Notes: generated by a model from the sequence alone, not told the origin. DNA of 64,000 nucleotides from an uncultured Ardenticatenaceae bacterium (GCA_964467705.1 CAYXUZ010000011.1:572-64571), one strand, 5' to 3'. Shown: positions 22,647 through 45,415, counted from the stretch's first letter. A program made the numbers and translations.

Positions 22647-22803
22647 TTTACCAAAAACCCTCACCCTAGCCCTGCTTTGAGGGGGGCAAATGGGGTGGAA
22701 TAGTGGCCGAAAAGAGTGTTGAGCGGCAGGTATTTCCGTGTACAATGGGGACAGTCGGGGGAATACAGTATCAACCACACAGGCACGTAAGCAGGAGGTT
22801 CAT

Positions 22804-25077
22804 ATGAATAAAGCGACTTTTGTTTCATTCTCTACCAATGTCAATCTGGATGCGCTGCCAGCCGGATCGGCGTTTAAGGCGATTTGGACGGTGCGTAACT
22901 CTGGAACAACCATCTGGGGAGAGGGTTACACCATCACCCATATCAACGCTAACAAAGGCAGCCAATTGCTGACCGTCAAGGCCACTTATACGCTGGCCGA
23001 AGTCGCTTCCAAAACCAGCGTGAACCCCGGCGAAAATGTAGAGATTACCCTGGAGATGACCGCCCCGGCGAAAGCCAATCATCGCTTTTTCACCGACTGG
23101 CAGTTGAAAGACCCACAGGGCAAGTTGTTTGGTGACATCATCTGGCTGCGCCTGGTAACAACGACACCGCCGCCTAAGGTCGAAGAAAAACCAGCGCCGG
23201 GCGGGCAGAAGATAAACAACAGCAAATATATTGACGACCACAACATTCCTGATGGCACGCCAATTCAAGAGGGCAAGAGTTTTACCAAGCAGTGGGTGGT
23301 GAAAAATAACGGCGATCTGCCCTGGACGACGGCTTACCGGCTGGTGTGGGTGGGTGGTGAATCGCGCATGGCCGGTTCGATGAGCCATACTGTGCCGGAA
23401 GCGCAGCCGGGTGAGGAAGTGGTGCTTTCTGTACCCATGATTGCCCCACCAGCGCGGGCGGAGGCGTATACCAGTTCATGGCGCATCCATGATGAGCAGA
23501 ACCGGGCCTTTGGTGATTCGTTTTGGGTGAAGATTCAGTCTACGGCGAATGTGGAGGGGTTTGGTATACGGCCGTACTGCCAAAACGATCCACAATGGAA
23601 AACCCTCAAACTAGGGCACGGTCAGAAAACATTTGGCGAATTTGGCTGCCTGCTGAGTTGCATGGCCATGATGCTCACCGGTTTTGGCGAAAATTACACC
23701 CCGCTCTCGTTGAACAATGCCCTACTCAACCGCCCCGCCGGGCAGGGGTTCGACGCTTCCAACGTGTTTTTCATCTCCCCGGCCGCACTCATTGACCACG
23801 TAAAGTTCTATGATAATTGGACGCCGTTGCCGAACACAGGCGCAACCTTTGCCAAACTTGACCCCAACCTGCTTGGCCGCATTGACCAGGAAATTGCCGC
23901 CGGGCAGGCAGTAATTTTGCAGGTGGATCAAGACCCCACCGACCCGTACACCTATGGCACAGAGCAGCATTGGGTGTTTGTGCTGGCGAAACAGGGGAAT
24001 GATTATCTGGTACTCGACCCGACCGACGGCCGTCCCGTCTCCTTGCTCACGCGGTATGGCTATGCCGGGCGTTCACTGGCCGAGGCGGTCAAGTCGGCAC
24101 TCATTTATCGTTCGGATCGGGTGCGGATTCAGCGCGGGGCGCAGCCGCCGGCCGTGGAACCGGTGAAAGAGAGTACGGCCGTGAGTGCCATTGGCCCCAC
24201 CGATGGCGAATTGAAATACACCGGGCCGGCCTGGGAGTTTGGCAAGATGCTCAAAGGGGTGCATGACCGCGCCAACCGCCACCCGGTGCAGGCTGATTGG
24301 GACCTGGCACGAGGCAAGTTCGAGTCGGTGAAGGTGATGAGCGGCGTTTCGGTGGAGGAGATGCAAAATTATCAGGCCAAGTTTTACATGTGCCGGTTGT
24401 TTGAGAGCTGGAACGGCCGTCATGTGCCGGTGCAAGATTTTGTGAATACCGTCGCCAACGACATTGAACGGCTGGTGAATGCGGGCGTCACCTATTTTGA
24501 ATTTCACAACGAGCCAAACCTGACGCATGAGGGGCTGCGCTACAAAGGGGTGGCTGGCTCCTGGAGCAACGGCGCGGAGTTTGCCCAATACTTCATGGAA
24601 GGGCGCAAGCTACTGCGGCAGCGCTTCCCTGGCATTAAAGTGGGCTTTCCCGGCCTGTCGCCGGGGGCGGATGCGGAATATCAGTTTGGGCATGATCGTG
24701 GCTTTCGGCTGAACGATGTCACCTTTTTGCAGCAGGCGGAAGCGGCCGTACGCGCCGCCGATTTTCTGTGTGTCCATGCCTACTACATCTCCATGCAAGA
24801 GGTGGAGACGGAAGCGATTGCTCTGGTGAAAAAGTACCGGCGCATGTTCCCGGACAAGTTGATGTTTGTGACCGAGTTCAGCAACCCTGACCCACAAATG
24901 AAGACGCCGATCATTGACAAAGGCAAACAGGCCAAACGGTTCTATGAGTTATGCAGCCAGATTCCCGGCATGGGCGCGGCTTATTATTTCATCATTTCCG
25001 GTTCGGGCTGGGATCATCAGGCATTGCGGCGGGACGCGGACGGCCGTTCGCTGGGCATCATTGAGCAAATGTTGTAG
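22804..25077 (+). CDS. Multidomain protein: two NBR1-like Ig domains, a peptidase C39-like domain, and a clan GH-A TIM-barrel glycosidase-like domain
   Basis: GGAGG RBS. Two repeats of the W.V.N.G...W pattern (FKAIWTVRNSGTTIW; FTKQWVVKNNGDLPW). PYCQNDPQWKTLKLG...FGCLLSCMAMML resembles C39-like domains. FEFHNEPN and MFVTEFS are the acid/base and nucleophile Glu motifs. Confidence 0.6.
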   Translation: MNKATFVSFSTNVNLDALPAGSAFKAIWTVRNSGTTIWGEGYTITHINANKGSQLLTVKATYTLAEVASKTSVNPGENVEITLEMTAPAKANHRFFTDWQLKDPQGKLFGDIIWLRLVTTTPPPKVEEKPAPGGQKINNSKYIDDHNIPDGTPIQEGKSFTKQWVVKNNGDLPWTTAYRLVWVGGESRMAGSMSHTVPEAQPGEEVVLSVPMIAPPARAEAYTSSWRIHDEQNRAFGDSFWVKIQSTANVEGFGIRPYCQNDPQWKTLKLGHGQKTFGEFGCLLSCMAMMLTGFGENYTPLSLNNALLNRPAGQGFDASNVFFISPAALIDHVKFYDNWTPLPNTGATFAKLDPNLLGRIDQEIAAGQAVILQVDQDPTDPYTYGTEQHWVFVLAKQGNDYLVLDPTDGRPVSLLTRYGYAGRSLAEAVKSALIYRSDRVRIQRGAQPPAVEPVKESTAVSAIGPTDGELKYTGPAWEFGKMLKGVHDRANRHPVQADWDLARGKFESVKVMSGVSVEEMQNYQAKFYMCRLFESWNGRHVPVQDFVNTVANDIERLVNAGVTYFEFHNEPNLTHEGLRYKGVAGSWSNGAEFAQYFMEGRKLLRQRFPGIKVGFPGLSPGADAEYQFGHDRGFRLNDVTFLQQAEAAVRAADFLCVHAYYISMQEVETEAIALVKKYRRMFPDKLMFVTEFSNPDPQMKTPIIDKGKQAKRFYELCSQIPGMGAAYYFIISGSGWDHQALRRDADGRSLGIIEQML

Positions 25078-32926: not shown

Positions 32927-32997
32927 GTCAATTACCAATGGTCAATGGTCAATTGCCAACTGACCGATTACCAATAACGGATTACCGATTACGGATT
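32927..32997. repeat. Word repeat block (CAATGGT / CGATTAC words)
   Basis: CCAATGGTCAATGGTCAATTGCCAACTGACCGATTACCAATAACGGATTACCGATTACGGATTC, between the flotillin stop and the pspA-like start. Confidence 0.7.
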
Positions 32998-35037
32998 CCC
33001 CGCCGTTGCCCGCAAGTAGAAATCGTCAAAGGGCAGGTCACGGATAATGGGGAGTTGGGACACGGCCGTTTGCGCTTTTTGCACGGCCGTATCATCCGGC
33101 AACTTTTCGCTCAACAATTGCAATGCCTCACCCACCGTTTTGCCTTTCAACTTATTCACATTCAAATGCTGCTCCGCCTTCTGCACAATTTCCGGCACCA
33201 ACAGCGCCAGTTCCGCCACATTTGTCCCCGCATTGGCCCCATTGGCCGCTTTGGTCAGGCTATCATCCCCGGTATTCCCCGTAACCCGGTTCAGCAACTG
33301 CTGGCCTGCTTCCAAGACCGGTGCAGGCGTATTCTTCAACACCTCGCCCAAGCCATCAGACAACGTGACCATGCGCAGCAGCGAGGCAGCGGCATTGGGA
33401 TCACCAATCATCTTGATATTCATCGAGGCCAGCGCCTTCGCCAACGCTTCAGACTTCGCCACCTCAATCTGCACCTGCGCGTCCAACTGCAATTTCAAAA
33501 TTTCCACGCGCTGCGCCACCCCGTCAAAGGCTGCCAACGCTTCCGCTTTGGCTTTGGCCCCTTCCGCTTCCGCCAACGCTCTGGCCTTCACGGCATCGGC
33601 CTCTTGCATCGCCGCTTCCGCCTTCGCCCGCAACACATCCGCATCCGCCAGACCAACGGCCGACGCCTGCGCTTTGGCCGCCTCGGCGCGCAGCTTTTCC
33701 GCTTCCGTCTCCGCCTGCGCCTGGGTGCGAATCGTTTCTGCCTGTTTCAGCGCCGCTTCGGCTTCGGCTGCCGCACGAGCTTTGAGGGCGGCTGCTTCCG
33801 CTTCCGCTTCGCGCTGTTTGCGCAGCGCTTCCAGTTCAATGCGGTTCTTTTGCTCAATCATTGCCTTTTGCGCTTCCCGCTCCGCCTGAATGGTACTGAT
33901 TTTAGCTTCGCGCTGCGCCTGTTGGGTGGCTTCCACCGTTTTCACGGCCTGAGCTGCTTCTTCTCGTTTCGCCAGCACCAGCAGGCGCTCCTCTTCGGCT
34001 CGTTCGCGCTCTTGTTCCGCCTGCACCAGGGCAATCTGGCGCTGCTGGTCGGCCAGTTCCAATGTCTGGCGGCGGGTCAACTCGGTTGACATCACCTCTT
34101 GCTGGTTGCGCTCGTTTTGCACGGCCAGCTCTTGCGACTTCCCCATTTCTAGCAGGGCCACTGCCCGCTCTTTGGCAATCCGCGCCTGCTCCGATTTCTG
34201 CTCTTCTTCAAACACCTTTTGGTCAGCCTGCGCTTTCTCGGTAGCCTGCATGGTGCGCACTTCGCGCTCTTGTGTCGCTGCTGCCAGTGCCAGATCACGG
34301 TCCAGGTCTAACCGCTGGCGGGCCGTTTCCGTGTCCTTTTTCTTAATTTCAATCTCCATCTTGCGCTCGATGTCATTGCGCTCCCGTAGCGCCTGTTGGA
34401 TCACTTGCGCGTTGGCGCGGGCCACCTGTGCGCCGAACACATCGTCGGTGCCAAAGGAGCCTTGCCGCGCCGCCCGCAGCGTGAGGATGGAGACGGATTC
34501 CAACGTCAGACCGTTTTCTTCCAGGTCAGCTTTGAGCCGGTTTTGCACTTCCTCGATGAACTTTTCTCGCTCTTGATGCAGGCTCATCAGGGTGAAAGTG
34601 GCGGCTACGTCGCGTAGCGCGCCGTCCAGTTTGGCGTCTACCAATTCTTTCACGGTAGCCCCATCCACCTGCTTGCCGCCAATGGTGCGGGCGGCGTCCA
34701 CAATGCCGTCAATGGTGGGGCTGACTTTGATGTAAAAGATAACCTTGATGTCGGCATATTGGGGATCAATGGTGAGCAGGGCGGTTTCGCCGGTACGCTC
34801 AATTTCGATGGCCATGGTGTTCAGGTCTACCCAGGTGAATTCGTGAATGGTGCGGAAGACCCAACCGCCACCGTTCATCACGACTTTGGGCGGGGCGGTC
34901 GAGCGCCCCAGACCGCCGGTACGGACAAAGGCGCGGTTGGGCGGCGTCTTGACATAGGCGCGTAGGATAGAAAAGAACAGGATGATGCTAAACAGGACAG
35001 CCACAAAAATGATGGCGGCAGGGATTAAAACTTGCAT
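32989..35037 (-). CDS. Flotillin (SPFH/band-7 domain) protein, YqiK/FloT-like
   Basis: 682 aa. N-terminal TM helix, SPFH domain (TMAIEIERTGETALLTIDPQYADIKVIFYIKV), and a long Ala/Glu flotillin coiled coil. Confidence 0.9.
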   Translation of the reverse strand: MQVLIPAAIIFVAVLFSIILFFSILRAYVKTPPNRAFVRTGGLGRSTAPPKVVMNGGGWVFRTIHEFTWVDLNTMAIEIERTGETALLTIDPQYADIKVIFYIKVSPTIDGIVDAARTIGGKQVDGATVKELVDAKLDGALRDVAATFTLMSLHQEREKFIEEVQNRLKADLEENGLTLESVSILTLRAARQGSFGTDDVFGAQVARANAQVIQQALRERNDIERKMEIEIKKKDTETARQRLDLDRDLALAAATQEREVRTMQATEKAQADQKVFEEEQKSEQARIAKERAVALLEMGKSQELAVQNERNQQEVMSTELTRRQTLELADQQRQIALVQAEQERERAEEERLLVLAKREEAAQAVKTVEATQQAQREAKISTIQAEREAQKAMIEQKNRIELEALRKQREAEAEAAALKARAAAEAEAALKQAETIRTQAQAETEAEKLRAEAAKAQASAVGLADADVLRAKAEAAMQEADAVKARALAEAEGAKAKAEALAAFDGVAQRVEILKLQLDAQVQIEVAKSEALAKALASMNIKMIGDPNAAASLLRMVTLSDGLGEVLKNTPAPVLEAGQQLLNRVTGNTGDDSLTKAANGANAGTNVAELALLVPEIVQKAEQHLNVNKLKGKTVGEALQLLSEKLPDDTAVQKAQTAVSQLPIIRDLPFDDFYLRATAGNP

Positions 35038-35079
35038 GGGTTCCTCCTATGTGGAAACAAGGCGATTTGGCAAATCGCG

Positions 35080-35784
35080 TTACGATTTTTTATCAATGGA
35101 CACGGCCGTATACCGTTTTTTAGCCGCGTCATAATCCACCAGCACCACTTCTGACTTGCCGTCAATCGGCTCGTCGTCACCGGTTATGGCAAAGACGTTG
35201 ATCAACGTGCCACCCTGGTCACGTACCCGTACCAAACCATATTTGCCATCCACACGCGGGCTGATGACTGCGCCACGCCGCCCCACTAACCCGGCAGCCG
35301 ATGTGGCAGTGGTGTTGATAGACGGCAGGAGACGGCCGATTATTCGGGCCACACGAGATGAGATTAAACCACCAAAAATAAAGGCGAGGGGAAAGACCAA
35401 CACCAGCCCCCAGGCTGGGTAACTGCCTAAAATGGTTTCTAGCAGGGTGTTGAGCGTCCAACCAATCACGGCCATACTGCCCAGTAAAACAACCAGTACA
35501 ACCATCAATGGTGCCTTGCCTATGCCCAGAAAAGCCAATACAGACAGTGAATCAAAACCACCATCCGCATCAAGGTCGGCGTCTATGTCCACATCGGCGT
35601 CGGCATCAAAGTCAAGGTCTATGTCGGCGTCCAGATCGGCGTCAAAGTCGGCATCGAGGTCAGAATCACCATCTCCACCCAGGCCAATGAGTTGCAGCAT
35701 CGCCAGGAGTCCACACACCAGCAGCATCAGCGTAAAGGGCAAGTTGTACCAACTAAACAGCGTAGGGAAGGTTTCGGTTAACAT
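35080..35784 (-). CDS. NfeD-like membrane protein (YqiJ/DUF1449 type)
   Basis: TM helices flank an acidic DLDADFDADLDADIDLDFDADADVDID tract. C-terminal OB-like GRRGAVISPRVDGKYGLVRVRDQGGTLINVFA. Sits directly upstream of flotillin, as in yqiJK. Confidence 0.75.
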   Translation of the reverse strand: MLTETFPTLFSWYNLPFTLMLLVCGLLAMLQLIGLGGDGDSDLDADFDADLDADIDLDFDADADVDIDADLDADGGFDSLSVLAFLGIGKAPLMVVLVVLLGSMAVIGWTLNTLLETILGSYPAWGLVLVFPLAFIFGGLISSRVARIIGRLLPSINTTATSAAGLVGRRGAVISPRVDGKYGLVRVRDQGGTLINVFAITGDDEPIDGKSEVVLVDYDAAKKRYTAVSIDKKS

Positions 35785-37155: not shown

Positions 37156-37638
37156 ATGTTTATGACGACACTGATGGAAATTAGAGCGGGAGATGATATT
37201 ATCGAGCATCTTCCCTTCAAGCCATATCGCAACTCAATTGAGCGGCGCGCCATGCAGTTTTTACCGGGGCCAGATGAGCCTCAATCAACCAATATCCAAA
37301 CCCCCTGGGGTGAAACGTTGCTGTGCAAATTTGGCGATTACATTGTGAGTGAAATGAATGCACCGAAAGATCGTTGGCCGGTAGATCGAGAGATTTTTGA
37401 GGCCAGTTATCTGGAATTAGAGCCAGGAAGTTATGTGAAACGGCCGTTGACTTATCTGGTTCCCTTGACCAACATCACAGCCGATCCCAATCAACAAGTG
37501 GTTATCTACACAATGGAAGGCCGTGTCACCGTCCGCGCTGGAGATTTTTACCTGGCGCGGGGCATCCAGGGTGAAATTTGGCCCTACCCCAAAGACAAGG
37601 CCGAGACCAGCCTGATTCTGGCAGATTTTTTAGAATAA
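37156..37638 (+). CDS. Hypothetical protein (two small beta-rich repeats with GDY/GDF motifs)
   Basis: GAAGAGG RBS. LLCKFGDYIVSEMN...WPVDREIFEASY and VTVRAGDFYLARG...IWPYPKDK. No family confidently recognised. Confidence 0.5.
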   Translation: MFMTTLMEIRAGDDIIEHLPFKPYRNSIERRAMQFLPGPDEPQSTNIQTPWGETLLCKFGDYIVSEMNAPKDRWPVDREIFEASYLELEPGSYVKRPLTYLVPLTNITADPNQQVVIYTMEGRVTVRAGDFYLARGIQGEIWPYPKDKAETSLILADFLE

Positions 37639-37648
37639 CGACAACTAC

Positions 37649-37682
37649 AAAAAAAGCCCGGTGTTATGCCGGGCTTTTTTTT
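37649..37682. terminator. Bidirectional intrinsic terminator shared by convergent genes
   Basis: A7 tract, stem AGCCCGG (37655-37661) / CCGGGCT (37669-37675), then a T8 tract. Confidence 0.8.
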
Positions 37683-37692
37683 GTTTATTTCC

Positions 37693-39981
37693 TCAAGACG
37701 CGGCTCGTGGCCGGTCAAATTTCGTGATGTTCAGGTGTTCCATCACGCCACCCATGTGTCGCATCTGGTTAACCATGTGATTTACCAACAACCCATCCAT
37801 ATCTTGCTGACCACTGGTATTTCCATCCCACAGGGCAATCATTCTCACCCGGTCAATACCCAAAACAAGTGATGAGTAAAGCGCCCACCGGTTATTCCGC
37901 TCATACAAATTGTCTCCCTTTTTCACTTTGCCCAGGCGTTCCGGCTGGAAGCGGATGTTCACCAGAGGGTGATTACGCAGGGCATAATATCGCTCCACCC
38001 AACGCTCGCCACCGTAGCTAATAAATTGTTTGATATACAAGGGTTCTGCGTAAGGAAGGTAGATATTCACTTGTAGGCCACGCTCCAGGCAGCACTCAAC
38101 AAAAATAATATCGCTGCCACAAGAGACGCCTGCGAGATATGCCCGGTCATTGGCGTCGGCTTTTGATTTGTCCAATGCATCGTTTATCTGTTTACGCACG
38201 GTGTCTTCAAGGTCGGATGGGAAGCGCTTGACGGCCCGGTCTGGGCGGTCCAACATGTGTCCAGTAAAAACGAAGGAGCGCACGGCCGTCGTCACGGCCG
38301 TTTTGCTCTGATCATCCACCAAATCATCTTTCTGAATGCGCGCCAATTCGGCCTGCAAGGTCTTCATGGCCGCATCCACATAAATCTCGCGCATGTCCAA
38401 TGCTTTCAAAATCCTTAGCTGCTGCAATTCAGATTCTAAAAAGAAGGCATTTTTGCGGGTGGCCGTTAGCGCCTTCCGGTAAGCACGAATCACCTGGCGT
38501 GGCCGCTCGGCCGTCATAACCCGCAAATTTGCCAATGAAACCAATGTCCAATAATCGCTGGTCTCGTTCTGAATACGAGCCTCCAGAGAAAAGGTTAGCG
38601 CCCCCACCAGACTGGGTAGCGTCTCCCGCACGGCCGTGATCTCCGGGTCTGGGTCTTCCTTATCGTCAAACTCATCAGCCAGTTTCACCAGAATCGTAGC
38701 CAAAGTATACGCATTCACCGCCGGATAATACTGGTTCAAATCCCAATAATACCCCCGCAAATAGGTCTGGTAAGACATCAACAACCAATGGTAACTCTCA
38801 AACGCTTCCTGCAATCGCTGCCGGTCATCGGCCGTGTTGATCCAGGACTCCATCCACATGTCCTTATAGATGCGCCCCAGGTAAGCGATTGCTTCCGTAT
38901 CGTGCGGATCATCTGCCAACAAGGTTTCCAGTTTCACAATCGCTTCATCCACCCGGCCCAACCTGTTCAGAAAATAAGCCTCTTGCCGTCGAAAGTCTGC
39001 ATTGTTGTTGTTGATTTCCAATCCCTGGCGATATTGTTGCAGCGCTAATTCATCCCGCCCCATGCTGCGTAGCGCGCGCCCCGCTTCGGCTACCGCCTCC
39101 TCCTTGATGAGCGGATTGCTAATCTCTTCTGTAAGCACCAGAATATCGCCAATACGCTTTTCCCGCTGGGCAATGGTCACGCGCTCTCTCCATTCGTTAT
39201 ATTCGCGCCAAAATCCGGTAGCTAATGGCGTGCGCAGGGTACTCCGGTCGGCTTCCGCCAGACCAGTAAGCAGATTAAAGATGGGGCTGTGAATGGCTTC
39301 GGCATCCGAGGCATACGTGTCGCGGCAGACACGAGCAATAGCCTGCCGATCTTTCTCCAGAAATTCGGGGTCGGGCACACCGTCCGCATTGGTATGGTAG
39401 GGGATGGTACGCACGTTGAAAATGTCAAACGGCATGTAAGCACGCCCTGATTGGATATGCACGACACCCCGTTTCCGAAAAGCATGGCGTACCCCCAATT
39501 CATAAAAGACATTGGCGTTATCAATGCTCATATCGGCAATGACCAGATCAGCCAGCAGCAATTCCTGAAACATGTCGGTGAGAATATCGCCGCTGACGGT
39601 TTCTTCATCAGCGCGGAAGGCTTCAAAGCCAGCTTCTTCCAGAACCGGTTTGATGAGGTCGGCATAAATAGCATTAAAATCAAGTGTCTGCCCCTCAAAC
39701 CCTTTCTTCTTACCAAAGGGCATCACTACAAAGGCGTGGGGACGAGAAGTTGGCCCTTTGTCATCCATTTTGTGCGTTTCTTCAAAGAGTTCTTGTAACG
39801 ATGTTTCAGTTTCTTCAACTGGCTGTGGTAAGCTGGCTTTTGCCTGCCCTGCTAGCGTGGCCTGGGCGGGGGGCTGAGTGACAGTAGTGGTTGGTGTAGC
39901 CTGTTTTTTGCGCACGGCCGTGCCCTTCCCATTGGCGCCTTCTGCAATTTGCAATGTGGATTCCTTTGTGTCATCTACCAT
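37693..39981 (-). CDS. Three-module protein: NDT/TIR-like N-glycosidase-fold domain, TPR (ASK1/DUF4071-type) region, C-terminal SLOG-like nucleotide-binding domain
   Basis: ATG 39981 is preceded by GGAGG (39989-39993). NDT-like region (about 39409-39741): FVVMPFGKK...LLADLVIADMSIDNANVFYELGVRHA. TPR/DUF4071-like region (about 38329-39246): LALQQYRQGLEIN, AYFLNRLGRVDEAIVKLETLL, YYPAVNAYTLATIL. SLOG-like region (about 37729-38280): SFVFTGHMLDRPDRAVKRFP, AYLAGVSCGSDIIFVECCLERG, VRMIALWDGNTSG. Confidence 0.65.
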   Translation of the reverse strand: MVDDTKESTLQIAEGANGKGTAVRKKQATPTTTVTQPPAQATLAGQAKASLPQPVEETETSLQELFEETHKMDDKGPTSRPHAFVVMPFGKKKGFEGQTLDFNAIYADLIKPVLEEAGFEAFRADEETVSGDILTDMFQELLLADLVIADMSIDNANVFYELGVRHAFRKRGVVHIQSGRAYMPFDIFNVRTIPYHTNADGVPDPEFLEKDRQAIARVCRDTYASDAEAIHSPIFNLLTGLAEADRSTLRTPLATGFWREYNEWRERVTIAQREKRIGDILVLTEEISNPLIKEEAVAEAGRALRSMGRDELALQQYRQGLEINNNNADFRRQEAYFLNRLGRVDEAIVKLETLLADDPHDTEAIAYLGRIYKDMWMESWINTADDRQRLQEAFESYHWLLMSYQTYLRGYYWDLNQYYPAVNAYTLATILVKLADEFDDKEDPDPEITAVRETLPSLVGALTFSLEARIQNETSDYWTLVSLANLRVMTAERPRQVIRAYRKALTATRKNAFFLESELQQLRILKALDMREIYVDAAMKTLQAELARIQKDDLVDDQSKTAVTTAVRSFVFTGHMLDRPDRAVKRFPSDLEDTVRKQINDALDKSKADANDRAYLAGVSCGSDIIFVECCLERGLQVNIYLPYAEPLYIKQFISYGGERWVERYYALRNHPLVNIRFQPERLGKVKKGDNLYERNNRWALYSSLVLGIDRVRMIALWDGNTSGQQDMDGLLVNHMVNQMRHMGGVMEHLNITKFDRPRAAS

Positions 39982-39994
39982 AAGGTTGCCTCCA

Positions 39995-42235
39995 TTAACC
40001 CTGTTCATCCTGGGCTGCTTTGGCTAATGCCTGTTTAATCGCTTCGTCCGAAACCTGTAAGCCCTTTTCTAACAGGCGATCCACAGCATCGTCAACGGCC
40101 GTATCTGACGCCGATCCATTTGTTGGCTCAGTTTGTTCACCATTTTCCGGCCCGCTGCCAGCTTCAGAGGTGAACTGAATTGGATATTTAATGTCCGGTG
40201 TGGCTTCGTAGGTAACATTAGCCCATTGCTCGTGTACGGCCGTACCCATGTCCTCAATAACCGCCGTAACGGGGGTAAAAGTGACCACAAATTTGACCTG
40301 TTCACCCGCCTTTTGGCGGAGTGCCGCCGCTTCTGTCACGGCCGTTTCCACTACTTCTTGGCCTGTTTCCACCCAAGCGGCCGCCTCGGCCGCAACCGCA
40401 TCGCGGGCCTCGGCAGACTGGGTAACGGCTGCATCCATAGCCTCTTGAGCAGTCTCTGACCAGGCTGCCGCTTCTTCAGCAATGCTTGTCGCGGCAGTTT
40501 CACGGATAGCGGCCGATTGGGCCGCGGCCGTGTCTACCGCATCTTGGGCTGTCTCTGACCAGGCCGCAGTCTCCGCAGCCACGGCAGCAGCCGTGCCTTC
40601 TCGCACAGCGCCAACTTCGGCAATAGCTTCAGCGGTGCTTTCCACTGCCGCTTCTCGCCACGCAGACGCTTCTTCCAGGGCCATATCCCGGCTGGCTTCC
40701 ATAGCCAGCCGAGTGGCATCTGCCTCAGCCGCCGCCGCTTCGGCCGTTTCGGCCATACTCTCGCGGGCCGCCACCGATTGAGCGGTTGCCATTGTCATGG
40801 CTTCTTGCGCTGCCTGTCCCCAGGCCACGGCTTCAGCGGCCGTGGCCGCACGGGCAGTGGCAGATTGGGACCCGGCCGTGTCCACCGTCTCTTGGGCGGT
40901 CTCCCCCCAGGCGACAGCTTCGGCGGCGGCGGCTTCGCGCACAACAGCAGATTGAGCAACAGCAGCAGCGGCGCTATCCTGTGCTGTTTCACGCCAGGCA
41001 GCCGCTTCTTCCAGAGCCGCGTCCCGGCTTGTTTCCAGGGCCATGCGGGCGGCAGCAGCTTCACTGGCCGCCGCATCAACCGATTCACCAATGGTCTGGT
41101 TGAGTGCCATCGCTTCGCTAGACACGGCCGTGACCATACCAGACACCGTTGCCGCTGCATCTGTGGCCACAGCTGCCAACTGCTCTGTAGCCTGTGCAAA
41201 AACGGCCTGCGATTCCGCGAGTAGTTTCTTCTGCAACTCTGCATGTGTTGAAGCCGACACCTGTATCATTTCTTCAACCAGTTTTTTATCTTCATCCTCA
41301 ACACCAGCCAGTGTCTCTTGCATCGAGCGCAGCCACTCACTATTTTGGGCAAACATCAGATTTTCAGTAGCCAGTACCATCTTGTAAAATTCCGAGTCTG
41401 TTTGTTCGGTGCTGGATAATGCAAACCAATAATCGCGGATAATTGCCAGCTCCAATTTTACTTTACTGTAATTGGCAATGGTTTGTTCACGGTTACGCAA
41501 TTCTTCCCATCCGGTCAGGGCTGCCGCAAGCGAGGCGGTTAGCGCGACCCAAACAGCAAAAGGGCCACCCAGAGCAGCCAGCAATGAGCCGGCTCCACCC
41601 ATCAATAAAATTGCAATCGTCAGATTACGTTTGGCTTTGCCCAGCCGCACAATGCGTCCTTCATGCCAGGAAAGTTGTTCTTGTAAACGGTATCTCATGT
41701 ACTCTTCTGGCGTGAGGTCGGCAAAACCAGGATCACTGTTAGGATTGTCGGGAGAATAATAAAGGGGCAAAACACCGCGGTAAGGTTCAGTATCTAGCTT
41801 TTGACCGCTGGCCTTGTATATCTGACGCTGGATATTGGCCAGCCGATTGCTGAGCCACTTATTGCGGTCGGGATACTGTTTTAGCACCGTGCGGTAAATG
41901 TAGATTTCCTTTTTGATCTCTTCTGCCCCGGCACGCATGGCCAGCCAACGGCCGTCGCCCAACTCCCGACTGGTGAAGGCAGCAAGGATTGAACCCGCCA
42001 GTGGTGTGAGAATCAGCATCACTTTCAGTGCAGCTTGTGCTGTGACGGGAAATTCTGGACTATACACATCGGTAACGATTGCCAAAACAGTAGCCACAAT
42101 ACCCAGGATTGCTACCCATTTACGCAGTCTTAGATGGCGTTTGCTTAGTTTGTCGGCATTTGTGTCCAGTTCAGCATGGTGCATCCACGCCTTCTCTAAA
42201 ATAGCCGGGCGGCTGATCTCGGTTGCTGATTCCAT
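39995..42235 (-). CDS. Membrane protein with two tandem SLATT-like 2TM modules and a C-terminal Trp-marked Ala/Glu repeat region
   Basis: AGGAG RBS. Module 1 (about 41861-42193): WVAILGIVATVLAIVTDV / ALKVMLILTPLAGSILAAF, then RWLAMRAGAEEIKKEIYIYRT. Module 2 (about 41411-41713): LTIAILLMGGAGSLLAALGG / FAVWVALTASLAAALTGW, then REQTIANYSKVKLELAIIRDYW. Repeats lie at 40310-41083. Confidence 0.65.
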   Translation of the reverse strand: MESATEISRPAILEKAWMHHAELDTNADKLSKRHLRLRKWVAILGIVATVLAIVTDVYSPEFPVTAQAALKVMLILTPLAGSILAAFTSRELGDGRWLAMRAGAEEIKKEIYIYRTVLKQYPDRNKWLSNRLANIQRQIYKASGQKLDTEPYRGVLPLYYSPDNPNSDPGFADLTPEEYMRYRLQEQLSWHEGRIVRLGKAKRNLTIAILLMGGAGSLLAALGGPFAVWVALTASLAAALTGWEELRNREQTIANYSKVKLELAIIRDYWFALSSTEQTDSEFYKMVLATENLMFAQNSEWLRSMQETLAGVEDEDKKLVEEMIQVSASTHAELQKKLLAESQAVFAQATEQLAAVATDAAATVSGMVTAVSSEAMALNQTIGESVDAAASEAAAARMALETSRDAALEEAAAWRETAQDSAAAAVAQSAVVREAAAAEAVAWGETAQETVDTAGSQSATARAATAAEAVAWGQAAQEAMTMATAQSVAARESMAETAEAAAAEADATRLAMEASRDMALEEASAWREAAVESTAEAIAEVGAVREGTAAAVAAETAAWSETAQDAVDTAAAQSAAIRETAATSIAEEAAAWSETAQEAMDAAVTQSAEARDAVAAEAAAWVETGQEVVETAVTEAAALRQKAGEQVKFVVTFTPVTAVIEDMGTAVHEQWANVTYEATPDIKYPIQFTSEAGSGPENGEQTEPTNGSASDTAVDDAVDRLLEKGLQVSDEAIKQALAKAAQDEQG
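40310..41083 (-). repeat. About seven degenerate 29-32-aa protein repeats (A.AAAW.ETAQ...DTA..QSA..R) inside the SLATT-like gene
   Basis: EEAAAWRETAQDSAAAAVAQSAVVRE / AEAVAWGETAQETVDTAGSQSATARA / AEAVAWGQAAQEAMTMATAQSVAARE / EEASAWREAAVESTAEAIAEVGAVRE / AETAAWSETAQDAVDTAAAQSAAIRE / EEAAAWSETAQEAMDAAVTQSAEARD / AEAAAWVETGQEVVETAVTEAAALRQ. Confidence 0.8.
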
Positions 42236-42430
42236 ATAAATCTCTCCTGGTATGAAATTGAAATTGTACGTCTAATGAATTTATGCCGAATTGCTATTCG
42301 CCTGATAACGCCACATTGGCAGGTTGGTGGTGAACAGTAGGGTACTTGTGAGACCGGTATGCGCCTATAGTCTGGTAGTACCGGGCTTGGGCTTCTTGCA
42401 GCAAGCACATTTTGCGCTTTTTGGAGCAAA

Positions 42431-42444
42431 ATGTCAATTGACAT
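42431..42444. promoter_or_regulatory. Perfect 14-bp palindrome ATGTCAATTGACAT, candidate operator
   Basis: Lies in the 265-nt divergent spacer between the SLATT operon (start 42235) and the 42501 gene. Contains TTGACA on both strands. Confidence 0.3.
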
Positions 42445-42500
42445 AATGGTCATAACACGAGTTGTGCCTTACCCGACAAGGGCTGATACAATCCGGGGCT

Positions 42501-43325
42501 ATGAACAATTCACGTTTATTGATTACCATCCTCTCAATTCTGGCCCTCTTGCTGTTTGTAAGCGGGGGGGTACTGCTGTATCTGGGGCTACAGACAGCAG
42601 AAGCAACCGAAGCAGATGCTACGGCCGTAGCCGTGCCTACCCAAAACATCGAAACGGCCGTCGCCGGAACAGTAGCGGCTGTGGCCACCGCTTCGGCCAC
42701 ACCGGCTACACAAATTGCTGAACAGCCACCGACAGCATTAGCAACGGCTACCAACGCCATCCCACCTACCGTAACACCCGTACCCACTATCGCTGCGACA
42801 GACACACCTGTGCCAACAGACACACCACCGCCAACAGAAACGCCAACGGCCGTGCCCCCCACCAACACACCCGTACCGGTGATCTTGCCTACCGCTACCG
42901 CAACACCCGTACCCCCCACCAATACGCCGGCCCCCCCTGCTGGTCCCCAACCGGGTAATCATAGAGGTCTGATTGCCACCAATTTTGCCTTGCAAGATTG
43001 GCGCACAAATCCCACCGTCAACGGCGAAATCTGGTATGAGTGGACCATTGCCAACACCTCAGGCGCTGGCGTACCCTATTCCACAATTGGCGTCTTGCCA
43101 CGCAAAGACGGCGTAGACCGCCCCCAGTGGTACCAAAATAACTGGGGCGGTAACAATGATGTCATGCCGCCAGAAGGTCTAAGCTGGCCCTCCTGGCTTT
43201 CATTACCGGAACCTGGAAATTACACATTGCGGGTCGTTGTCTGCTTTGATGGATTCCAAACCTGTTTGAATGGACAGGGAACATTCCACACATTATCAAA
43301 TGAGATTCCTATTACCATTCGGTGA
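42501..43325 (+). CDS. Membrane-anchored extracytoplasmic protein with a Pro/Thr-rich linker
   Basis: N-terminal anchor LLITILSILALLLFVSGGVLLYLGL, PT-rich linker (TPVPTIAATDTPVPTDTPPPTETPT...), and a globular C-terminal domain of unknown family. Confidence 0.55.
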   Translation: MNNSRLLITILSILALLLFVSGGVLLYLGLQTAEATEADATAVAVPTQNIETAVAGTVAAVATASATPATQIAEQPPTALATATNAIPPTVTPVPTIAATDTPVPTDTPPPTETPTAVPPTNTPVPVILPTATATPVPPTNTPAPPAGPQPGNHRGLIATNFALQDWRTNPTVNGEIWYEWTIANTSGAGVPYSTIGVLPRKDGVDRPQWYQNNWGGNNDVMPPEGLSWPSWLSLPEPGNYTLRVVVCFDGFQTCLNGQGTFHTLSNEIPITIR

Positions 43326-43372: not shown

Positions 43373-45415
43373 ATGAAGCTCTGGTTGTTGCGGCTGGCAA
43401 AAATCATCACCGGCCATTGGCTGGAGATTTTGTTGTTATTCATGGCGGCATTGGCCGGGGTGAGTGTGGTTGCCTGGCTGGCGACCCGCTTAAGCGGGGG
43501 GCAGTTAGTCGGGTGGTTGATCGTCACGGCCGTTATTCTGACCTTTACCATTGAGATAAGCCGCTACCGCACCTTCCAACACCTGAACGTGCTGCGCCGA
43601 CAGGCCGAAGCCAGTGGCGCGCTCGGCCAGGAAATCACCGCCAACCCGGATTTTGAGAGCTTGCTGGCCGATATTACCCATTTGCTAAAATTACAGTTTC
43701 AGTTTGATTATGTGGGACTGTTTTTGCTAGAAAAAGACCTCTCCATTTCGCGCATTTCCCAGGTGGGTGCTGTGTCTCATTCCTATAGCATTGGCGCTTA
43801 TCTGGACGGCCGTCAGGCCATGGGGGCGGCTGCCTGGCAGCAAGAAACGGTGTGCGCCAACAATGGTATTTGTGATCTACCCGGTATCAACCCCCATTTG
43901 CTGCCCCGGATGCGTTCAGAATTGGCGCTTCCCCTGGTAGCCGGGCAAAAGTTGATGGGTGTGTTGGATATTCAAAGCCGGGATGTGATGGCCTTTGAAG
44001 CGGATCATATTCTGGCTTTGCAATCATTGGCCGCACAAACGGCCGTAGCCATTCGCAACGCCGTCCTTTACCAGCGTGAATCTGGGCGGCGGCACATGGC
44101 CGAAACACTGTATGAAATTGGTCTGGCCCTCTCTGGCACGCTCAACCGCGAAGAAGTATTAGGCAACATCTTGGAGCAATTGGCTACAGTCGTTCCTTAT
44201 GATCGGGCCGCGCTCCTTTTGCACGAGAATAGCGAATTGGAAATTGTGGCCGCACGGGGCTTTCCCGATCATACCCAACCTCTGCAAATACGCATTTCCC
44301 TGAACACAGGCGACGAAAACGACATTTACCTCATCATTCATCGGACACAAAAACCATTGGTCGTACCCGATGTTTCTAAACAGCCAAACTGGACGCATGT
44401 GACTGGGCTGCCTGAGGCCAAATCATGGCTGGGTGTACCCCTTATTCATGAAAAGCAAGTCATCGGCATGTTATCTCTTGTTCGGGAACGAGATGAGGCC
44501 TACAGCCAGGAAGACACCTCGCCGGCCACCACATTTGCCGTGCAAGCCGCCGTAGCCTTGCACAATGCTGAACTATATAACCGCATTGACCAGTTCAATC
44601 GGCAACTGGCCTATGAAGTGGAAAAGCGCACAGAAGCCGTTATTCAACTGGCACGGTTAGATCAGGCTAAAACCGATTTCATTAATGTAGCCGCACACGA
44701 GCTGCGCACACCGCTGACAACGATCCGCGGATACAGCCAAATGCTGCTTCAGGAGTCGGATATTGCCCAAAACAACTATTTTAATGAGCTGGTGACTGGT
44801 ATTTTCCAGGGCGCAATCCGGCTGCATGAAGTAGTCAACAATATGCTGAACGTAGCCAAAATTGACAATCAGGCATTAGAGTTGCATTTTCAGCCGCTTT
44901 CGTTAGGACATTTGTTGGAACGGGTGCATCTGTCACTGGCGGAAGCGTTGGCGCAGCGCAATCTGTTGTTAGCCATGGAGCCGATGACGGCCGTGCCAGA
45001 CATTGAAGGCGATGTGGAAGGATTGCGTTCTGTCTTCTCCCATCTTTTGCTTAACGCCATCAAATACACGCCAGATGGTGGGCGTATTACCATCACCCAT
45101 GCTCTGCTGCCAGGTCAAGAGGGAGACACGGCCGTGCCCGGTTATGTTGAAATTATCATCAGCGATACAGGCATCGGCATTCCCCCCGATGCACGTGAAC
45201 TTATCTTTTCCAAATTCTACCAGACGGGGCAGATTGCCCTGCATTCCAGTGGTAAGACCAAATTCAAAGGTGGCGGTTCTGGCTTAGGGCTGGCTATTGT
45301 ACGGGGCATTGTGGAAGCCCACAACGGCAAAGTATGGGCTGAAAGCGCCGGGTATGATGAAAACGCCTTGCCCGGCAGTCATTTTCATGTGGTATTGCCG
45401 GTCGTTCAGCCGTAG
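43373..45415 (+). CDS. Sensor histidine kinase with two GAF domains
   Basis: N-terminal TM helices, GAF-like regions, H-box AAHELRTPLTTIRGY, N-box LLNAIKYTPDGG, G-boxes DTGIGIP and GGSGLGLAIV. Confidence 0.9.
   Translation: MKLWLLRLAKIITGHWLEILLLFMAALAGVSVVAWLATRLSGGQLVGWLIVTAVILTFTIEISRYRTFQHLNVLRRQAEASGALGQEITANPDFESLLADITHLLKLQFQFDYVGLFLLEKDLSISRISQVGAVSHSYSIGAYLDGRQAMGAAAWQQETVCANNGICDLPGINPHLLPRMRSELALPLVAGQKLMGVLDIQSRDVMAFEADHILALQSLAAQTAVAIRNAVLYQRESGRRHMAETLYEIGLALSGTLNREEVLGNILEQLATVVPYDRAALLLHENSELEIVAARGFPDHTQPLQIRISLNTGDENDIYLIIHRTQKPLVVPDVSKQPNWTHVTGLPEAKSWLGVPLIHEKQVIGMLSLVRERDEAYSQEDTSPATTFAVQAAVALHNAELYNRIDQFNRQLAYEVEKRTEAVIQLARLDQAKTDFINVAAHELRTPLTTIRGYSQMLLQESDIAQNNYFNELVTGIFQGAIRLHEVVNNMLNVAKIDNQALELHFQPLSLGHLLERVHLSLAEALAQRNLLLAMEPMTAVPDIEGDVEGLRSVFSHLLLNAIKYTPDGGRITITHALLPGQEGDTAVPGYVEIIISDTGIGIPPDARELIFSKFYQTGQIALHSSGKTKFKGGGSGLGLAIVRGIVEAHNGKVWAESAGYDENALPGSHFHVVLPVVQP

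Follow-up and report, generated by a model that had tools for sequence, protein, structure and literature searches.

A TIR-less, SLOG-fused relative of Thoeris in an uncultured Ardenticatenaceae bacterium

What kind of system is made by a doubled two-helix membrane protein and a putative nucleotide-cleaving sensor protein that are encoded side by side? The question is raised by two co-directional minus-strand genes at 37693-42235 of a 64,000-nucleotide (nt) stretch of DNA from an uncultured Ardenticatenaceae bacterium (Chloroflexi, Anaerolineae; GCA_964467705.1, CAYXUZ010000011.1:572-64571), called the window below. An earlier note, made from the sequence alone, read the pair as a nucleotide-signalling conflict system that resembled no named one. 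The first half of that reading was right, by kinship to the Thoeris proteins ThsI/BcTpr and ThsH; the second was not, as the pairing maps onto ThsI/BcTpr (type VIII) plus ThsH (type VII). The locus is a TIR-less, SLOG-fused relative of Thoeris. The kind is known, and the variant (DrHyd-TPR-S-SLOG with a double SLATT, TIR loss, a PGDYG-like gene and class-wide conservation) appears to be undescribed in the literature that we searched. We think it probable, with considerable room for doubt, that the locus is a chromosomal Thoeris-like module that signals through nucleotides derived from nicotinamide adenine dinucleotide (NAD) and ends in growth arrest or cell suicide.

Two genes and the domains they encode

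The genes and their domains, all on the minus strand, are as follows (aa, amino acids; ORF, open reading frame; TM, transmembrane helix; NDT, nucleoside 2-deoxyribosyltransferase; pLDDT, predicted local distance difference test score).

37693-39981, minus: gene 2, 762 aa, DrHyd (MilB/NDT-like putative glycosidase) with TPR-S and SLOG
39232-39759, minus: gene 2, predicted N-terminal Rossmannoid glycosidase (aa 75-250), with M87-P-F-G, N155-A-N157 and E161 in YELG
38302-39231, minus: gene 2, helical linker and TPR-S/DUF4071 (ASK1-type) repeats (aa 251-560), from Pfam and an all-helical model with pLDDT >90
37714-38286, minus: gene 2, predicted C-terminal YpsA-like SLOG domain (aa 566-756), with FxFTGH, G618xxxG622-S-D624 and W718-D-G720
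39995-42235, minus: gene 1, 746-aa ORF, tandem SLATT membrane protein
41861-42160, minus: gene 1, SLATT module 1 (aa 26-125), DUF4231/SLATT_3-like, holding TM1 and TM2
41333-41701, minus: gene 1, SLATT module 2 (aa 179-301), SLATT_1, holding TM3 and TM4
40316-41275, minus: gene 1, Ala/Glu-rich extension (aa 321-640) with protein-level repeats

The N-terminal domain of the gene 2 product is best described as a putative MilB/NDT-like N-glycosidase with Glu161 (codon 39499-39501) as candidate catalytic residue. The PADLOC profile PDLC00733 ('Effector, TIR') is matched by 81 of 81 gene 2 orthologues (best E 2.4e-8), and the domain aligns with a ThsI-like protein of an E. coli plasmid, annotated 'TRAFs-binding domain', at 31% identity (E 3e-27) with the motif kept: MPFGKK stands opposite MGFGKK, and ADLVIADMSIDNANVFYELGVRHA opposite ADIVVADISTSNANAIYELGVRHA. 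Over aa 76-493, identity to plasmid 'TRAFs-binding' proteins is 27-31%. Residues M87, N155, N157 and E161 correspond to M11, N80, N82 and E86 of BcTpr, and E161, N155 and N157 are invariant across 119 sequences. In BcTpr the N-terminal domain was modelled as MilB-like, and N82A and E86A abolish both NADase activity and defence (bioRxiv 10.1101/2023.05.26.542521). The earlier proposal of an NDT-like glycosidase with a YELG glutamate is thus upheld by PDLC00733 and by the plasmid homology. The domain has no Pfam match, Nuc_deoxyrib_tr reaching E 0.13 in only 3 of 81 members, and a PDB profile search with it returned only an insignificant DNPH1 motif (ADVVVAEV...VGYELG, E 1.2).

Homologues of this domain alone (aa 74-233, 32-38% identity) are carried by temperate Firmicute phages, among them Streptococcus phage Javan37 (L092:2498-3193), Enterococcus phage phiEf11 (L093:2465-3385) and 40 other Firmicute phages. 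The Javan37 copy is flanked, within the lysogeny module, by cro and the repressor gene, and one phage homologue has a weak Nuc_deoxyrib_tr match.

Behind the putative glycosidase, aa 313-530 match TPR-S (PF20308, E 1e-12) and MAP3K_TRAF_bd/DUF4071 (PF13281, E 6.5e-8, above the gathering score), as expected of the ASK1-type module that had been recognised there. In an AlphaFold2 model of gene 2 built from 119 homologues (pLDDT 80.7, predicted template modelling score 0.76), residues 82-224 form a Rossmannoid domain, 256-557 helical repeats and 569-750 another alpha/beta domain. Modelled alone, from an alignment of full-length homologues headed by the window fragment, the C-terminal domain reached pLDDT 91.9, and Foldseek returned B. 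subtilis YpsA (2nx2) as the best match (E 1.2e-5, TM scores 0.59/0.67). The further matches (ShosA, the ThsA SLOG with 3'cADPR, a molybdenum cofactor carrier protein, LOG and DprA) all belong to the SLOG superfamily. The model thus predicts that the C-terminal domain folds as a SLOG domain, which is what had been proposed for it. A PDB profile search with the domain sequence found nothing; the SLOG domain of a Rhodococcus SLOG-patatin protein was matched by sequence at E 1e-12. Members of the YpsA clade carry a G-x-D/E ligand-binding signature after strand 2 (PMC6459960). In our model G622-S-D624, with family consensus G-S-E, lies between strand 2 and helix 2, a likeness to G-x-D/E by position only.

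Among 1.84 billion representative proteins, 1852 relatives of the SLOG domain were found. In each of the 11 longer relatives whose domains were scanned (11/11), SLOG stands behind TPR-S and the other partner varies: the glycosidase, TIR plus glycosidase, AAA_35 plus TIR, patatin, nSTAND1, or a C-terminal sigma-54 activator. TPR-S-SLOG therefore looks like a fixed unit, presumably one that reads a ligand, whose outputs can be exchanged. One such protein from the representative library (P0299, 1212 aa) has TPR-S-SLOG fused to a sigma-54 enhancer-binding AAA+ domain, which suggests that this sensor pair can drive transcription in place of an enzyme or a pore.

Gene 1 had been read as a tandem SLATT protein, and this part holds because both modules have profile matches and the protein has two plus two TM helices. 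Scanned alone, aa 26-125 match PF14015 (DUF4231) at E 1.2e-6 (29.3 bits, cutoff 24.7) and, weakly, SLATT_3 (E 2.6e-5); aa 179-301 match PF18181 (SLATT_1) of Pfam at E 2.1e-19 (70 bits, cutoff 26.3) and NF033634 of NCBIfam at E 4.5e-18 (65.5 bits, cutoff 41). Kyte-Doolittle helices fall at aa 39-60, 68-88, ~204-224 and ~222-240. A curated profile above its threshold, a two-TM hairpin in each module and a nucleotide-signalling gene context place the protein in the SLATT superfamily, and by analogy it is predicted to be a ThsH-like pore-forming effector. What had been overlooked is the other half of the protein. Ala makes up 35% and Glu 13% of residues 321-640, where about seven repeats of A-W-x-E-T-A-Q type recur every 29-33 aa; this region makes window gene 1 unusually long, its homologues usually having ~440 aa. 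Tandem Repeats Finder detected no tandem repeat in the gene 1 DNA; the repetition is confined to the protein.

The layout of the operon stands as first described, as do all the peptide motifs quoted for the two genes. The gene 1 stop codon TAA (39997-39995) is followed by 13 nt and then by the gene 2 ATG at 39981, a spacing that suggests translational coupling. The gene 2 frame is open over 37693-40008(-) with a further in-frame ATG at 40008 that has no Shine-Dalgarno sequence; the start at 39981 gives the 762-aa product. The signals around the pair, and the gene that meets it head-on, are these:

39989-39993, minus: Shine-Dalgarno GGAGG of gene 2, within the 13-nt gap
42244-42248, minus: Shine-Dalgarno AGGAG of gene 1, preceding ATG 42235
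42409-42437, minus: promoter-like TTGACA-17-CAAAAT, 10/12 matches, ~175 nt upstream of gene 1, a consensus match only
37649-37681, both strands: bidirectional intrinsic terminator (A7, 15-bp stem, T8), serving gene 2 and the convergent small ORF
37156-37638, plus: small convergent ORF, 160 aa, weakly PGDYG-like

The terminator, which the earlier note had also reported, is the strongest terminator-like site of the region, with 15 pairs.

The cassette in relatives and the loss of its TIR gene

Gene 2 has thousands of full-length homologues, nearly all in metagenome-assembled genomes (MAGs) of Anaerolineae/Chloroflexota. With one genome scanned per species, relatives turned up in 244 genomes, and the locus counts given here refer to the best 80 loci. 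A SLATT gene lies directly upstream of the gene 2 homologue on the same strand in 74 of the 80; five of the remaining six have too little contig upstream, and the sixth (L038) has its only SLATT-like match downstream. At four loci (L052, L059, L068, L080), and in proteins P0081 and P0242, the two are fused into one ORF of ~1090 aa in the order DUF4231-SLATT_1-glycosidase-TPR-S-SLOG. Conservation of the pair across genomes, which had been put forward as a check, is therefore well borne out, with fusion in at least four cases.

About 46 of the 80 loci hold a larger, five-gene cassette:

First gene: Peptidase_C39_2-SH3 protein, ~480 aa, at least 47 loci, median 63% identity
Second gene: TIR protein, ~1000 aa, with TIR, one TM helix and then WD40 propellers
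Third gene: SLATT
Fourth gene: homologue of window gene 2 (glycosidase-TPR-S-SLOG)
Fifth gene: convergent PGDYG-like ORF, ~160 aa, 58 of 80 loci

The description of the window pair as a self-contained two-gene unit thus holds for the local state only. It left out the five-gene cassette with TIR-WD40 in ~46 of 80 relatives, and a third conserved gene in the window itself, 37156-37638(+). Likewise, that no named defence gene lies nearby is true of the window and misleading for the family.

The cassette's TIR protein (L088:5625-8648 and ~45 other loci) consists of the TIR domain, a TM helix at ~aa 208-235 with preceding positive charges, a coiled-coil-like stretch and ~14 WD40 repeats. Such an arrangement would leave the propellers extracellular, in the manner of an inverted Toll-like receptor.

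The small ORF is syntenic in 58 of the 80 loci at ~50% identity, and PGDYG (PF14083) is matched by 16 of its 59 members (best E 6e-5); a PDB profile search with it gave nothing. At L005, L043 and L072 it directly follows a TIR gene on the same strand. Mere vertical synteny is ruled out as the reason for its conservation, since the farther flanks (DAGK, Helicase_C_3) are common to 2 loci only, against 58 for the small ORF, which is therefore a true part of the cassette.

The head of the cassette is variable. TIR-WD40 is cleanly deleted in some loci, for example L091, and at L006-L017 and L035 it is replaced by a ParA-like protein, a methyltransferase, a dCache-HAMP-GAF protein and a 166-aa cyclic nucleotide (cNMP)-binding protein. 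These four replacement genes stand directly before SLATT in one Anaerolineales clade (e.g. L090:3137-9974), in what looks like a swap of input modules.

In the clade of the window (the window and L001-L004) the locus has neither the TIR nor the peptidase gene; the SLATT protein is lengthened, its Ala/Glu-rich extension being confined to this clade, and SLATT, gene 2 and the small ORF are kept. The closest relative (L004/L086, on a 245-kb contig) likewise has no TIR within 10 kb on either side. Within the TIR-less clade the ratio of nonsynonymous to synonymous substitution rates (dN/dS) is 0.05 for gene 2, 0.037 for its glycosidase domain and 0.096 for the small ORF; for gene 1 it is 0.075 against L004, with 0.115 in the extension. 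Values of ~0.05-0.1 mean that all three genes are maintained and rule out a degenerate remnant. We have thus shown that the TIR gene was lost from the locus in the window's clade and that the remaining genes are under strong purifying selection. The glycosidase domain is the most conserved part of the cassette (mean column identity 85%).

Nor does the operon look newly arrived. The 64 kb contain 155 copies of the palindromic octamer ACGGCCGT, or about one per 410 bp, against 1.3 expected from shuffles. The operon (37693-42235) holds exactly 9 copies, and its 2.0 per kb, against 2.4 per kb in the host, is therefore host-like, as had been stated; the conclusion that the operon is long resident was right. 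GC content is ordinary for the window, and together with the ACGGCCGT density it rules out recent horizontal acquisition. The octamer is found inside and between genes and is a hyper-abundant, HIP1-like palindrome of the host genome; two copies 4 nt apart form a hairpin within gene 2 (38282-38301).

Some of the surrounding genes deserve mention. Divergent from gene 1 are 42462-43325(+), of 287 aa and belonging to no family beyond a weak DUF3185 match, and 43373-45415(+), a double-GAF histidine kinase; both are probably neighbours and not parts of the cassette, because their adjacency to the operon is kept only in the nearest relatives, L001 and L004. At 32989-35784(-), 2 kb off and beyond holB, lie a flotillin-like SPFH/Band-7 gene (682 aa) and then a gene for a YqiJ/NfeD-type membrane protein, a classic pair that does not adjoin the cassette in relatives. 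In the 779-aa product of 22738-25077(+), N_BRCA1_IG Ig-like repeats are joined to Peptidase_C39_2 and a glycosyl-hydrolase core; at 33% identity this product is distantly paralogous to the cassette's Peptidase_C39-SH3 protein, but is encoded 15 kb away.

A proposed mechanism and its rivals

How might such a module work? For its ligand, its NADase or signal-making activity, its pore formation and its trigger we argue by analogy. The gene 2 product would be a cytoplasmic enzyme-sensor that cleaves NAD+ or a related nucleotide, with Glu161 as the putative catalytic residue and N155/N157 in a phosphate-binding loop. Its TPR-S-SLOG unit would restrain the glycosidase and is predicted to bind a small ligand of the ADP-ribose (ADPR) type. 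The gene 1 product is probably made 1:1 with it by translational coupling, and the C-terminus of the one and the N-terminus of the other would share the cytoplasmic side. An ADPR-type messenger may bind both TPR-S-SLOG and the SLATT protein. The glycosidase would then deplete NAD+ or nucleotides, or convert or amplify the signal, and the SLATT protein would, upon signal, oligomerise and permeabilise the membrane. The membrane-anchored TIR-WD40 protein at the head of the operon is the likely signal source in canonical cassettes. As TIR is absent from the window locus, the signal there would have to come either from the gene 2 glycosidase, the source reported in the case of BcTpr, or from a TIR protein whose gene lies elsewhere in the genome.

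Several observations weigh against this Thoeris-like reading. Neither a family TIR hidden Markov model nor tblastn nor Pfam scans of neighbouring genes detected a TIR within the 64-kb window, and so a defining component of Thoeris is missing there. The locus lies outside any defence island, among holB, the SPFH/NfeD pair, the GAF histidine kinase and a phosphoribosyltransferase (PRTase) gene. Foldseek of the whole gene 2 model against the PDB returned TPR proteins only, with no fold match for the N-terminal domain. The literature itself is divided, DrHyd-TPR being the maker of the signal in one preprint (bioRxiv 10.1101/2023.05.26.542521) and only its receiver in another (bioRxiv 10.64898/2025.12.03.692087). 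Finally, the glycosidase domain is 73-95% identical (median 81%) across Anaerolineae, which is unusual for an immune protein.

This last point speaks for another explanation, which we regard as possible though improbable on balance: the former conflict cassette may have become an institutionalised physiological switch that controls programmed death, dormancy or membrane/NAD homeostasis in filamentous, multicellular Anaerolineae upon envelope or extracellular cues. The biochemistry would be unchanged; the trigger and the role would differ. The whole cassette is kept across the class, in the window it has a chromosomal, non-island housekeeping setting with host-like composition and ACGGCCGT density, and no whole-gene-2 orthologue was found in IMG/VR viral contigs. 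Its partners resemble envelope or extracellular sensors (Peptidase_C39-SH3; TIR-TM-WD40, with WD40 probably outside the cell; dCache-HAMP-GAF and the cNMP-binding protein in one clade). There are also precedents, in that the SLOG protein YpsA gained a role in cell division in Firmicutes (PMC6459960) and that such systems have been linked to multicellular prokaryotes (Kaur et al. 2020, PMC7159879), a proposed link on which conservation in filamentous Anaerolineae and a receptor-like TIR-TM-WD40 partner both touch. However, phage defence is the role of all characterised homologues (ThsH, ThsI, BcTpr), the distribution within Anaerolineae appears partial (244 species genomes detected), and a modular, swappable cassette head is typical of defence systems.

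A bolder idea, rather unlikely in our view, is a TIR-independent, self-priming circuit in the window's clade. Here DrHyd would make the ADPR-type messenger, TPR-S-SLOG would read it back as feedback or amplification, and the double SLATT would permeabilise the membrane, the whole being a domesticated, conserved cell-fate switch of filamentous Anaerolineae (altruistic death or dormancy along the filament) and not a mobile defence set.

Could the TIR gene merely have moved elsewhere in the genome, leaving in the window an ordinary pair of combined type VII and type VIII Thoeris effectors served by a ThsB in trans? A TIR gene that has changed both strand and side of the cassette is already seen in L005, L043 and L072, and the window is nearly all of one 65.8-kb MAG contig, so that most of the genome lies outside it. 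Yet TIR is missing from the whole 64 kb and from the 10 kb on either side in L004/L086, and in the BcTpr survey no arrangement was commoner than stand-alone DrHyd-TPR without TIR (29 of 78; bioRxiv 10.1101/2023.05.26.542521); we hold such a relocation to be quite unlikely. Housekeeping nucleotide salvage, with gene 2 as an NDT- or LOG-type nucleotide hydrolase and gene 1 beside it by chance, could appeal to the housekeeping members of the NDT and LOG families, to the PRTase gene 5 kb away and to the housekeeping neighbourhood, but is very improbable given the pairing in 74 of 80 loci, the fusions in several lineages, the conflict-system hallmarks (TPR-S sensor repeats and the TIR, patatin and STAND partners of relatives) and the lack of any significant match of gene 2 to the housekeeping NDT or LOG Pfam models.

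The Thoeris-like signalling module remains our preferred reading, and the locus has a wider bearing. The window's clade is a natural experiment on how far the DrHyd-TPR-S family (ThsI/BcTpr) depends on TIR, and a clade that is TIR-less yet selected bears on the disagreement between the preprints over signal maker and signal receiver. The fusions of SLATT to DrHyd-TPR-S-SLOG, together with a constant TPR-S-SLOG unit and swappable outputs, offer testable hypotheses on how ADPR-type signals are read; a two-step signalling cascade is one possible scheme. A highly conserved, soluble bacterial DrHyd-TPR-S protein with a built-in SLOG domain could also be a structural model for ASK1.

Comparison with known systems

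Burroughs and Aravind reportedly gave a computational description of the DrHyd-TPR-S core in 2020. A later preprint, drawing on their work, names TIR, YspA (SLOG), patatin, LSDAT and calcineurin as partners of the 'Tpr core' (Burroughs & Aravind 2020, via bioRxiv 10.1101/2023.05.26.542521). In the B. cereus BcTir/BcTpr system, BcTpr is reported to be an NADase that makes an isomer of cyclic ADP-ribose (cADPR) and binds cADPR with a dissociation constant of 1.9 uM (bioRxiv 10.1101/2023.05.26.542521). Type VII Thoeris consists of TIR and the SLATT effector ThsH, and type VIII of TIR and ThsI ('CMP hydrolase and TPR'); both effectors are activated by canonical cADPR, and rare operons hold the two together (bioRxiv 10.64898/2025.12.03.692087).

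Gene 2 resembles ThsI/BcTpr in having a MilB/NDT-like putative glycosidase (M-x-F-G, N-x-N, YELG Glu) followed by TPR-S/DUF4071. Plasmid ThsI-like homologues are operonic with SLATT/DUF4231 genes, as gene 2 is with gene 1; operons with TRAFs-binding, TIR and DUF4231 genes are found on E. coli IncP plasmid pKMi029_2 and Rhizobium plasmid pCC511_4, where both effectors are thus combined. Unlike ThsI/BcTpr, gene 2 ends in an additional YpsA-like SLOG domain and begins with a disordered stretch of 75 aa. The locus also departs from type VIII Thoeris in having no adjacent TIR gene (ThsB), in being chromosomal and Anaerolineae-restricted, and in being far more conserved.

The likeness to type VII Thoeris lies in a SLATT-family two-TM effector beside a nucleotide-signalling partner and, in relatives, in a TIR gene that directly precedes SLATT at ~46 of 80 loci. 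However, the SLATT of gene 1, in contrast to ThsH, is doubled (DUF4231 plus SLATT_1) and bears a 320-aa Ala/Glu-rich repeat region, and its direct partner is the DrHyd-TPR-S-SLOG protein and not TIR. The TIR protein of relatives is a TM-anchored WD40 fusion of ~1000 aa, whereas type VII Thoeris has a small ThsB.

ThsA of type I Thoeris (SIR2-SLOG) and TIR-associated SLOG-patatin proteins share with gene 2 the YpsA-clade SLOG, which they use to sense NAD-derived signals. In gene 2 this domain sits behind TPR-S on the glycosidase protein instead of being fused to SIR2 or patatin, and the membrane effector is a separate protein, N-terminally fused in some relatives. On a Rhodococcus plasmid the order is a STAND-WD40 gene (nSTAND1 by Pfam, its N-terminus weakly TIR at E 1.3e-4), a DUF4071/TPR-S gene and SLOG-patatin. 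In CBASS (cyclic oligonucleotide-based antiphage signalling) with a SLATT/2TM effector, a nucleotide second messenger is likewise presumed to switch on a SLATT pore; CBASS itself is ruled out here by the lack of a CD-NTase/SMODS cyclase among the window neighbours and the related cassettes examined.

The comparison extends to animals. The regulatory region of ASK1/MAP3K5 shares PF13281 with gene 2 aa 345-530, where the match exceeds the gathering score, though gene 2 has no kinase domain and ends in SLOG. No ASK1 chain was among the PDB sequence or fold matches, and the relation runs through the Pfam model only. On that profile match, the DrHyd and TPR-S module is the putative bacterial counterpart of the ASK1 regulatory region.

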